From positions 288,001 to 352,000 of the forward strand of contig CAWBOC010000006.1 of assembly GCA_963790305.1 (NCBI GenBank): a DNA stretch of 64,000 nt. The letters are read 5' to 3'. This stretch comes from an uncultured Gemmatimonadaceae bacterium (GTDB lineage: Bacteria; Gemmatimonadota; Gemmatimonadetes; Gemmatimonadales; Gemmatimonadaceae). A program made the position numbers. Below are positions 45,001-48,000 of this stretch, piece by piece (the stretch's first letter is position 1; every line of letters starts with the position of its first letter).

Positions 45001-48000
45001 ACAGTATTGCGTCGGCACTTGACATGAGAGCGTCCAAGTCAGCCTCGGTAACATCGTTAGCGATCCGCATCGCAGCCCACGTCTCAAGTCCGCTGGCGGC
45101 CTTCACCGCCGACACATCCCCCGGTGTTGGATCGCCGTGAAGCTGCACGACGTCGAGCGCCGCCCTCTCGGCAATCCGCGCGATGTCGGCCACCGCTTGA
45201 TTGCCGAAGACACCGACACGCCGAGCGCTGCGTACTCGTTCGAAGAGCGATCGAGCCTCGTCGGCGGTGACCTGACGCGGACCGCCGGCGAACACGGCGC
45301 CCACGAACGCGGCCCCCAGGTCGACGGCGACCTCGACGTCGGCACTGCGCGTGAGACCGCAGAACTTGATGGCGGTCATCGACCTCGGCGCTCGACGCCG
45401 GTGAGAGCGCGCACCGCCGATGCTGCATCCCCGGCAGAGGAGAGAGAAGAGCCGATGAGAACCGCATCAGCGCCCGCCCGCGCTGCGCGCTCGACGTCGG
45501 CGATCGTCTGCATGCCGCTCTCCGCGATCGCAATGGCGTCCGCGGGCACGCGCGGGAGCAGCCGGTCGATGGCGCGCGCATCCACCTCGAGCGTCTCGAG
45601 GTCGCGGGAGTTGACGCCGATTGCACGGCCCCGTGCGTGGAGCGCTGCTTCGAGCTCTTGCTCCGTGCGCACCTCGATCAGCGGCTCCACGTCCCACTCC
45701 CGCGCCGTTTGCGCCAACGCGACGAGCTCCGCCTCCGGGAGTGCACGCGCGATCAAGAGGACGGCGGAGGCGCCCCACGCGCGCGCTTCGATGATCTGCG
45801 TCTCATCGATGATGAAGTCCTTGCGCAGCAGCGGAACCGTGACGGCGGCAGACGCGTCCACGAGGTCCTGTTCGCTCCCCGCGAAGTGCATCGGCTCGGT
45901 GAGTATCGAGATCGCGGCTGCTCCACCCCGCTGGTATTGACGCGCGCGTGAGGCGGGGTCGAGCTCCACGTTGATCTCACCTCGGGATGGTGACCGGCGT
46001 TTCACTTCCGCGATCACCGCTACCCTCTCCGCGCGCAACGCCGTGACGAAATCGGGGCGCCGATCGGCCGTTCGAGCCCGCATTTCGAGGTCCGAGCGAT
46101 GAGCGCGTGCCGTCGCGACCCGTCTGCTCGTCTCGTGTATGATCCGACCGAGCACACCAGTCGGCGGGGTCCATTTGGCAGGAAATGCTTGCACTTCGGC
46201 GACTGTTCGGCTAATGTCTATTCGGGCTCTTTTCGGTCAGTCTGGCCGGACGCCCGCTACTCTCGTGAACCAGGGGCACGCCATGCCGCTTACCAAGCGT
46301 CAGCGCGAGATTCTCGACTTTCTCACCAGCTACTCGGAGCAGAACGGCTACGCGCCGAGCTTCGAGGAGATCGCGCGGCAATTCAACTATAACTCGCTGG
46401 CGACGGTGCATGAGCACCTCACCAACCTCGAGCGCAAGGGATACATCAAGCGCGCGTACAACGAGAGTCGCGCGATCGAGATCCTCCCCTCCGAGGTGAA
46501 TCCGCGTGCGGTAGAGCTTCCCCTCCTGGGAAGCGTCGCCGCCGGTATGCCGATCGAGGCGGTCGCGACCAACGAGAGCATCTCGGTTCCCGAGGATTTC
46601 GTGCGACGCAGCGAGAATCATTACTGTCTTCGCGTGCGCGGAAACTCGATGATCGACGAGCAAATCCGCGACGGCGACTTCGTCGTCGTGGCGAGCCGCA
46701 ATCGCGCCGACAACGGCGAGATGGTGATCGCGCTGGTGAACAACGCTGCGGCCACTGTGAAGAAGTTCTATCGCGAGCGGGACGGCCGCATCCGCCTCCA
46801 GCCGGCCAACGAGACGATGTCACCGATTTACGTGCACGAGAACGAGGTGACGATTCAGGGGATCGTTGTCGGAGTCATGCGCAAGTACTAGAAGTGCTGG
46901 AGTCAGGAATCAGGAGTCAGGGGCGAGGAATTCGATTCCTCGCCCCTGCTCCTTTATAGCAGCCGACGGCTCCACAAGAGCCTCATTTTTTCGCGCTCGC
47001 CGCGCGTAGTCGCTCGAGCGCCCGGATCCCTGCTCCGCTAGTGAGCGAGTCCTCGGCTTGATCGACCGAACGGGCGAAATCGTCATGATCGCCGCTCACA
47101 TGAATCGCCGCGGCCGCGTTGAGCACGACCGCCGCGCGCGCTCCACCGGCGATTCCTCCAGCAAGAATGCCCTCGATGATGCTCGCATTGAGTCGCGGCT
47201 CGGCACCGGCGAGCTCGCGTGCGTCACGCGCGGTGAGCCCGAGCGGCGCAGGATCGATCGTCCACTCTCGGACCTGGCCGGTGCGCACTTCGAGCACGCG
47301 CGTTGGACCGAGTGGAGATACCTCGTCCATCCCCGGCTCGCCGTGCACGACCATCGATCGGCGACTTCCCAGTTCCGCCAACGCCCCCGCCAGAAGCGGA
47401 AGGCGATGCGCATCGGCGACGCCCACGACTTGACGTCCCGCTCCGGCGGGATTCGCGAGCGGACCGAGCACGTTCATTACGGTGTGTATCGCCAGCTCCC
47501 GGCGCACCGGTCCGACGTGCCGCATGGCCGGATGCATTAAGGGTGCAAACATGAAGACGATTCCCGCCTCACGGAGTGTGGCGATCATTTCGTCGACCGT
47601 GCAATCGATACGGACGCCGAGGGCCTCCAGGACGTCGGCGCTTCCACACTGCGAGGTGAACGACCGGTTGCCGTGCTTCGCGATGCGGACGCCGGCGCCG
47701 GCCGCCACCAGAGCCGCCGCGGTCGAAATGTTGAACGTCGTCACCGTGCCCCCGCCGGTTCCGCAGGTGTCGACCAGCGTCTCGGGCGCATCGGCCGGAA
47801 GCCGCACCATCGCGTCGCGCAGCGCCCGCGCCCCGCCCGCGACCTCGTGCATCGTTTCCCCTTTCACCCGCAGAGCCACGAGGATCGCGGCCACCTGGGC
47901 AGGGCTCGCCTCCCCGCGCATGATCGCGCCGAACGCGTCCGCCGTATCCTCGGCGCTCAACGACTGGCCCCCGGCGAGCTGGCGAATCGCTCGCGCGAGC

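Follow-up and report, generated by a model that had tools for sequence, protein, structure and literature searches.

Direct repeats have been described as LexA operators in several bacterial lineages. In Alphaproteobacteria and in Acidobacterium capsulatum, the LexA box is GTTC-N7-GTTC, as given in the available portions of PMC8565304 and PMC3323433. For Balneolaeota, the accessible text of PMC7739468 reports an EMSA-validated direct repeat, TTACACATATTTTWTACATA, and takes such repeats to have had several separate origins; it also cites work on Verrucomicrobia, Patescibacteria and Acidobacterium, and counts the LexA motif of Patescibacteria (Sanchez-Osuna, Barbe & Erill 2017, PMID 28618189) among the direct-repeat cases. 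Gram-positive LexA is described with the palindrome GAAC-N4-GTTC (PMC3323433, part of the text) and E. coli LexA with the box CTGT-N8-ACAG (PMC8565304, part of the text).

Here, we describe the probable operator of LexA1 in an uncultured Gemmatimonadaceae bacterium, starting from a 64,000-nucleotide stretch of its DNA, called the window below. The gene is preceded by the repeat TTCGG-N6-TTCGG, which shares with the alphaproteobacterial box the direct orientation, the 11-bp period and the TTC core. The leading G of that box is not conserved here, however (present in 10 of 54 sites, for the first as for the second half-site), and helix III of the protein reads SLATVHEH as opposed to SKSGIHRL in alphaproteobacterial LexA. 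Because the repeat fails the alphaproteobacterial consensus at the leading G, it would work like that box without being one, in keeping with the genome-wide survey's note, which had called it a variant type. The Balneolaeota box is likewise a direct repeat with an 11-bp period but has a different half-site; one Acidobacteriota locus with Asn at position 41 of LexA (L253, TTACAC-CATAT-TTACAC) comes close to it. With the Gram-positive and E. coli boxes the repeat has a 16-bp footprint in common, and its right half-site TTCG matches the Bacillus half-site, the Bacillus LexA helix also reading TVH. Unlike in the Gram-positive palindrome, the left half-site is flipped in place, which yields the direct repeat. 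As in E. coli, an outer G accompanies Glu-45. No Gemmatimonadota LexA box or TTCGG repeat was found in the literature searched, most subscription papers being outside its reach. Together with its predicted regulon, the repeat would supply an SOS operator for an abundant soil phylum.

The predicted lexA1 promoter and its two boxes

A pattern scan of the window returned two exact copies of the repeat ahead of lexA1 (Table 1), of which box 1 ends 72 bp and box 2 46 bp upstream of the ATG. Box 1 occupies 16 of the 17 bp that separate the inferred -35 and -10 hexamers. The TTG-17-TAnnnT geometry is conserved at the lexA promoters across the loci compared, and the placement of a box within the spacer recurs in most loci of the LexA clade. 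A simple sigma-70 consensus scan called neither a -35 nor a -10 at the lexA promoter (0 sites), so that the promoter call draws only on cross-species conservation. The RNA runs found are assembled contigs, with at most 0.22 of words matched, and such contigs cannot show a transcription start. The gene is placed within the trp cluster on the opposite strand, with trpC on one side and trpD on the other, and both genes flank lexA1 in 21 of 29 relatives. On the opposite strand, the start codon predicted for trpC, a GTG, overlaps the putative -35 of lexA1.

Table 1. Features of the lexA1 locus (positions in the window)
Feature	Position	Strand	Remarks
trpC (IGPS), divergent from lexA1	45376..46194	-	PF00218; predicted start abuts box 1
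Inferred -35 hexamer TTGCAC, lexA1 promoter	46189..46194	+	TTG register kept across lexA loci
LexA box 1, TTCGG-CGACTG-TTCGG	46195..46210	+	Exact match; 18.1 bits
Inferred -10 hexamer TAATGT, lexA1 promoter	46212..46217	+	TA-nnn-T at same register in relatives
LexA box 2, TTCGG-GCTCTT-TTCGG	46221..46236	+	Exact match; 22.0 bits; spans expected transcription start
lexA1, 202 aa	46283..46891	+	PF01726, PF00717; TIGR00498 216.8 bits
Terminator-like hairpin, 14-bp stem	46918..46948	+	Consensus match only; between lexA1 and convergent trpD
trpD, convergent with lexA1	46983..48017	-	PF00591, PF02885

LexA1 consists of an N-terminal LexA winged helix-turn-helix domain and a C-terminal S24 peptidase domain, and its TIGR00498 score lies well above the cut-off of 110.95 bits. 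Aligned to the E. coli sites, the cleavage site A87-G88 and the catalytic dyad S122/K160 are in place. Helix III reads S38-L-A-T-V-H-E44-H-L; by an ungapped N-terminal alignment to E. coli LexA, E44 corresponds to E45 and A40 to N41, and E. coli numbering is used below unless LexA1 is named. Named records carrying a LexA1-type protein are titled Gemmatimonadaceae, Gemmatimonadales or Longimicrobiales, and the protein of the window pairs with a Gemmatimonadaceae record (SH-aLRT 95, quick tree). The taxonomic placement given by the survey is plausible.

We compared the 29 best-scoring lexA loci of 60 genomes of the order, 6, 13 and 10 of these loci from three families. An unbiased gapped-word count recovered TTCG-N7-TCGG and words overlapping it in all 29, and elsewhere in the class, in orders other than this one, 12 of 12 loci had the box as well. 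Two forward boxes, separated by 21-36 bp with a mode of 26, precede lexA in 37 of 40 distinct loci of the class; two loci have a single box and one has a box in each orientation. The survey's claim of a direct-repeat box before lexA1 was thus borne out by two exact copies and 29 of 29 loci of the order. Its preference for G or C before the second TTCGG was not: this base is A in 18, C in 22, G in 10 and T in 4 of 54 sites. The base before TTC is also free (A11 C25 G10 T8), while the two bases after TTC (GG) are fixed.

The repeat is not over-represented. In the window, TTCGG-N6-TTCGG has 7 matches at up to one mismatch against 6.33 expected, and its 12 exact matches in the genome compare with 7-25 for other spacers between 0 and 20. 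These counts are at chance level; the signal lies in the position of the repeat and not in its frequency.

Predicted regulon members in the genome and its relatives

We built a matrix from 54 exact sites at the lexA loci of 28 relatives (one duplicate dropped), with the genome under study excluded. In this 4.3-Mb genome six sites scored at least 20 bits, and all of them precede repair or recombination genes: the radical-SAM head of a radical-SAM/radical-SAM/imuA/imuB/dnaE2 cassette (24.8 bits, C7:247071, as contig and position), imuA (24.6 bits, C7:249651), gyrB (24.2 bits, C9:462042), ruvB (23.3 bits, C9:681152), lexA1, and a Rad52-family operon (20.5 bits, C6:417191). The translesion polymerase genes are boxed here through the two sites in the cassette. 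The survey's matrix had picked out the same genes but ranked them differently. With 17.7 bits for uvrB, whose box is in reversed orientation, and 17.4 bits for recA, these two rank 10 and 11 among 3,827 upstream windows, and both scores fall among apparent chance sites, one of which is inside 23S rRNA. The upstream window of lexA2, the second paralogue, ranks 504. When the spacer was set to 4, 5, 7 or 8, all target genes scored 12.4 bits or less.

At recA, a box with at most one mismatch lies within 250 bp in 29 of 29 relatives, compared with 0 of 28 downstream controls; control spacers of 4, 5, 7 and 8 gave 2, 0, 4 and 2 of 29. Nineteen of these boxes are exact; in the other ten, which come from the window's family, the first half-site deviates at one base. 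The fixed position that had been claimed for them did not hold, the distance to the aligned start varying between 70 and 223 bp. An imuA query found the gene in 12 of 30 relatives. An exact box was present within 250 bp in 8 of the 10 loci scorable at that distance, and a site of at least 20 bits within 1.5 kb in 12 of 12.

The remaining repair genes gave a narrower picture. A box precedes ruvB in 5 of 29 relatives (5 of 10 in the window's family, 0 of 19 outside), gyrB in 9 of 27 (9 of 10 and 0 of 17; one incomplete locus skipped) and uvrB in 7 of 29 (6 of 10 and 1 of 19; one skipped). Order-wide membership of these three genes was rejected on the counts outside the family; the survey's inclusion of them in the regulon holds for this genome and mostly at the level of the family. 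On promoter sequence, the conserved core of the predicted regulon is lexA1, recA and the radical-SAM/imuA-imuB-dnaE2 cassette, and ruvB, gyrB, uvrB and the Rad52 operon are additions largely confined to the window's family.

The Rad52-family gene (C6:417511-418254) matches PF04098 with 40.6 bits (cut-off 20.3), as do 25 of 25 aligned members, and has an Atlas match of 0.95, its nearest Atlas clusters being mostly phage. The protein carries a C-terminal zinc ribbon, with the strict pattern present in 20 of 30 loci. No sequence match was found in the PDB, and the structural model (pLDDT 60) has human Rad52 and yeast Mgm101 among its top rows at a weak E of 0.8-1.8. The gene occurs in 45 of 150 genomes of the window's family (about 30%) and, with a full-length query, in 0 of 38 genomes of the two other families (f2 and f3). 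An exact box lies upstream of the operon in 26 of 29 relatives fetched, compared with 0 of 28 downstream controls, and the three loci lacking it offer only 385, 582 and 813 bp before the contig ends. The box is reversed in 25 loci, and 24 of 29 fit TTG-(16-18)-TAnnnT-(4-8)-CCGAA-N6-CCGAA, which puts it just past the putative -10. At the level of the family, membership of the operon in the LexA regulon is well supported.

In 28 of 29 loci a small gene precedes the Rad52-family gene, so that the operon comprises two genes, the second encoding a putative single-strand DNA-binding protein; the product of the small gene has the conserved motif H-x4-D-x2-G-W-Y-C-x-H-G-x2-C. This Cys/His protein matched no family in Pfam, NCBIfam or PHROG. 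Its model is confident (pLDDT 90), with a best Z of 4.4 and no Foldseek match at E of 0.001 or below, and in the Atlas it falls into unnamed Gemmatimonadota clusters, a cluster of SWIM zinc-finger proteins being a further lead at 0.89. A tyrA-like neighbour of the operon, present in this genome, occurs in only 4 of 29 loci.

The control of DdrA, a Rad52-family protein of Deinococcus, is exerted by the DdrO/IrrE system and not by LexA. Like DdrA, the Rad52-family protein described here is chromosomal and linked to DNA damage; unlike it, it is preceded by a LexA-type box and a small partner gene and ends in a zinc ribbon. DdrA binds single-strand ends and protects them, but did not anneal strands in the quoted tests (PMC515370, part of the text). 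The survey's note had spoken of an annealase operon; the box upstream of it stands, and the label annealase, taken over from family membership, is best read as putative. A LexA-boxed Rad52 operon would point to an arm of the SOS response devoted to RecA-independent repair or to end protection.

Helix III residues and half-site bases across phyla

The survey had assigned the box to Gemmatimonadales, a range that proved too narrow. Besides being class-wide, TTCGG-N6-TTCGG is found in identical form and at the same -35/-10 position before lexA genes labelled Patescibacteria and Krumholzibacteria, and it is one base away from the Acidobacteriota form. Other classes of Gemmatimonadota carry TTCG(C/T)-N6-TTCGC at the same -35/-10 position in 9 of 10 lexA loci, and a box of this type occupies the same position at most Acidobacteriota lexA loci, where it reads TTCGC-N6-TT(C/T)GC, and in Nitrospina- and Binatia-labelled records. 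At recA of non-Gemmatimonadota genomes, no clear box was seen at the three loci examined, one of them incomplete. As the identical box stands before lexA genes labelled Patescibacteria, the 2017 Patescibacteria paper may already describe it; if the motif given there is the same, only its range and the regulon may be new here. The covariation of the box with helix III, described in the following, is new.

Four elements served as anchors in every promoter, namely the -35, both TTC cores and the -10, and the two final bases of the half-sites (positions 4 and 5) were left free to vary. The counts that follow include related loci, which are not independent, and one locus set had been picked by a peptide pattern in which residue 45 has to be K or E. 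With Glu at residue 45 (62 loci, 2 of which failed to anchor), 59 of the 60 anchored loci have G at position 5, a count that applies to each half-site. With Lys (91 loci, 17 not anchored), position 5 is C in 70 of 74, the exceptions including L254 and L203, where the second half-site has G instead. With Arg, position 5 is T and then C in the successive half-sites of 3 of 3 loci. Residue 41 goes with position 4 in the same manner: Ala with G in 128 of 128 anchored loci (144 in all), and Asn with A in 5 of 5 (7 in all, 2 not anchored), giving the box TTCAC. The one alphaproteobacterial LexA compared is an exception to this pattern, having Arg-45 with no conserved base at positions 4-5 of its box.

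In the genome data, E45 and N41 each correspond to a single change on the tree, and an independent test was therefore sought in metagenomes. We scanned these for a TTCGG promoter with an AT-rich spacer, using the TTCGG pattern alone, which returned at least 118 stretches, 80 of which were analysed. In 24 of the 80 a lexA gene lies downstream (in two cases behind another gene), its product sharing 40-50% identity with LexA1. Residue 45 is Glu in 19, Gln in 3 and Asp in 2 of them, and Lys or Arg in none. Ten of these LexAs were looked up, and four fell into clusters named Patescibacteria or Parcubacteria and one into a Krumholzibacteria cluster; the Patescibacteria-labelled LexAs with a TTCGG box have Glu, Gln or Asp at residue 45. 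In viral contigs, a 15-base promoter pattern had 71 matches, about the chance estimate for the size of the collection.

The data suggest that residue 45 goes with the outer base pair, an acid or amide with G and Lys or Arg with C or T, and residue 41 with the next base pair, Ala or Ser with G and Asn with A, through putative direct contacts. Genetic work on E. coli LexA linked Glu-45 with the outer G-C pair, and substitutions at residues 40-42 turn CTGT into CCGT. Residues 39, 41, 42, 44 and 45 of that protein contact DNA (available parts of PMC3091678 and PMC13416735). Asn-41 combined with Glu-45 predicts a half-site ending in CAG, which matches that of E. coli and was seen at one gammaproteobacterial lexA. 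The natural series TTCGG/TTCGC/TTCAC, each paired with single helix III residues, makes LexA specificity testable by one-residue swaps and offers clean substrates for asking how LexA, as a symmetric dimer, engages half-sites in direct orientation. We regard this series of residues and bases as more useful than the motif itself.

The likely binder and the origin of direct-repeat recognition

On these sequence comparisons, we consider it highly probable that TTCGG-N6-TTCGG is the operator of LexA1 and that LexA1 is the SOS repressor. LexA is established to repress by occlusion and to let go of its sites when RecA triggers its cleavage (PMC8565304, part of the text), and because LexA1 keeps A87-G88, S122 and K160, the same would be expected here. 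LexA1 on box 1 would cover the -35/-10 spacer and on box 2 the start region, blocking RNA polymerase, until DNA damage led to RecA filaments, self-cleavage at A87-G88 and release of the regulon. Helix III would read each half-site. Half-sites of the direct repeat would lie one helical turn apart, and a two-fold dimer would probably accommodate their head-to-tail arrangement by turning one DNA-binding domain on its linker.

The repeat could instead be the site of a DNA-damage regulator other than LexA, either an activator or an alternative sigma factor, with the lexA and recA promoters common to both. Such a reading would account for a box lodged in the -35/-10 spacer across phyla, where activators act, WYL-domain proteins being an example. 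It fits poorly, however, with the second copy over the lexA start and with the Rad52 box, which is reversed and downstream of the -10; occurrence in either orientation and at varied positions (lexA spacer, Rad52, uvrB) fits a repressor site. Moreover, two box positions vary with two DNA-contacting residues of LexA, and related direct repeats are reported LexA sites in the available texts of PMC8565304 and PMC7739468. We therefore judge such a regulator very improbable.

Binding by the paralogue LexA2 appears more improbable still. In this genome LexA2 passes TIGR00498 with 179.9 bits and keeps the AG, Ser and Lys residues, and a repressor need not regulate its own gene. Its recognition helix differs, however, reading STKTVSELL, and 0 of 19 lexA2 loci have a box or any site above 10.0 bits, as the survey had found for this genome. 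The box is kept at lexA1 and recA in families f2 and f3, where 22 of 22 and 15 of 16 genomes, respectively, have a single lexA match, and well beyond the window's family its letters still vary with the residues of LexA1. The survey had assigned the box to LexA1 from its autoregulatory position; the mostly single lexA of f2 and f3 and the tracking of helix III by the box letters place that assignment on firmer ground. That the lexA box is conserved for an overlapping trpC translation start, with all other sites due to chance, is scarcely credible: in several relatives the distance between box 1 and the trpC start is indeed 0 or 7 bp, and genome-wide counts do match chance, but there is no trpC at box 2 or at the recA (29 of 29), imuA and Rad52 (26 of 29) sites, and 6 of 29 lexA loci have neither trp gene in the fetched flank and still retain the box.

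With LexA1 as the presumed binder, we asked how the LexAs that go with direct repeats are related, using quick trees with SH-aLRT support only. In a tree of 62 LexAs, 49 LexAs of this group and one Cereibacter LexA, which belongs to a system with GAAC-N7-GAAC sites, fall on one side with a support of 99.7; Bacillota, Actinomycetota, gamma, delta-type, Nitrospirota and lexA2 sequences make up the other. This tree contains one alphaproteobacterial sequence and thin outgroups, and Balneolaeota LexA is absent from all trees; the grouping suggests a single origin of direct-repeat recognition by LexA, as opposed to the several origins proposed in the accessible text of PMC7739468. On balance we lean slightly towards a joint reading: direct-repeat recognition would have arisen once, in one LexA lineage comprising Gemmatimonadota, Acidobacteriota, Patescibacteria, Krumholzibacteriota, Binatota, Nitrospinota and Alphaproteobacteria, which reads a repeat of 11-bp period, usually in its own -35/-10 spacer, by a 45/41 code that also yields the E. 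coli half-site, and one family's regulon would have gained a phage-type Rad52 gene with its small partner. If so, the SOS boxes of uncultured phyla would be predictable from LexA sequence, and the single change E44K should switch LexA1 from TTCGG to TTCGC.

An Asn-41 sequence from an unpublished genome (L245, genome G159) is included in two of the trees; it is absent from the five anchored Asn-41 loci and from the 62-LexA tree. When the metagenome LexAs were considered with the tree, 4-5 changes at residue 45 were counted, at least two of them forced by strongly supported branches. In two trees, a trio with Glu-45 and TTCGG is sister to a pair with Arg-45 and TTCG(T/C) (SH-aLRT 97 and 93, respectively).

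The lexA1 promoter and the tryptophan genes

At the divergent lexA1-trpC junction, the start codon predicted for trpC overlaps the inferred -35 element of lexA1 and also abuts box 1, the first of the two inferred LexA1 operators (TTCGG-N6-TTCGG). The distance from the trpC start to box 1 is 0 bp in the window and in two relatives, and 7 bp in about nine relatives. Transcription of trpC-trpF-trpB must cross the LexA boxes or run antisense through lexA, and LexA may therefore act on the tryptophan genes too. The second box is reversed (CCGAA-N6-CCGAA) in one lexA1 promoter, that of genome G095 (L047), which shows freedom of orientation at lexA itself.

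The second paralogue, lexA2 (L002, L062-L079), forms a separate long branch found in the window's family and in other orders of the class; across these loci its helix reads STKTVS[ED]LL. In the window's own genome, lexA2 follows a gene resembling gltX.

Box strength at recA and split frames in other boxed genes

The first half-site of the recA box is mismatched in all ten loci of the window's family (L092-L100, L103), reading TTCGT and once TTCGC, and the box is exact in 19 of 19 loci from the two other families. Judged by sequence, the recA box of the window's family would be a weaker site, which could perhaps mean a higher basal level of RecA.

In the window's genome, uvrB shifts frame some 150 codons in and is split there, through an assembly error or as a pseudogene; the relatives' uvrB genes are open frames without stops. 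The first radical-SAM gene of the imuA-imuB-dnaE2 cassette (Rv2578c/PA0069-like) lies in two overlapping frames, possibly through an error of the same kind.

Features discussed (C7 and C13, contigs of the window's genome; L numbers, fetched loci)
Feature	Genome position	Locus
trpC to lexA1 box 2	window 45376-46236	
Split uvrB	C13:131234-133215	L036:1735-3716
First radical-SAM gene	C7:247116-248203	L034:1117-2204
Small Cys/His protein gene (alignment A2)		L035:1769-1999
Small gene or Y-family polymerase behind boxed promoter		L271, L275, L291, L305, L310, L312, L320, L321, L325-L327, L330, L336, L337, L339

The Rad52 operon and metagenome promoters

The small Cys/His protein encoded ahead of Rad52 probably binds zinc. 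The box can be as far as 1.1 kb upstream in some relatives, and in at least one (L086/L465) a long Lys/Ala/Arg-rich, histone-like stretch precedes the conserved core. The C-terminal zinc ribbon of Rad52 also occurs without Rad52 (L087 and L090): one 164-aa protein carries two copies in tandem, and a phage-like AAA protein ends in the ribbon.

Where the boxed promoter occurs in metagenome contigs of low GC content, it often precedes Y-family polymerases and small uncharacterised genes, the latter comprising a ~90-aa family and one that looks PUR-like.
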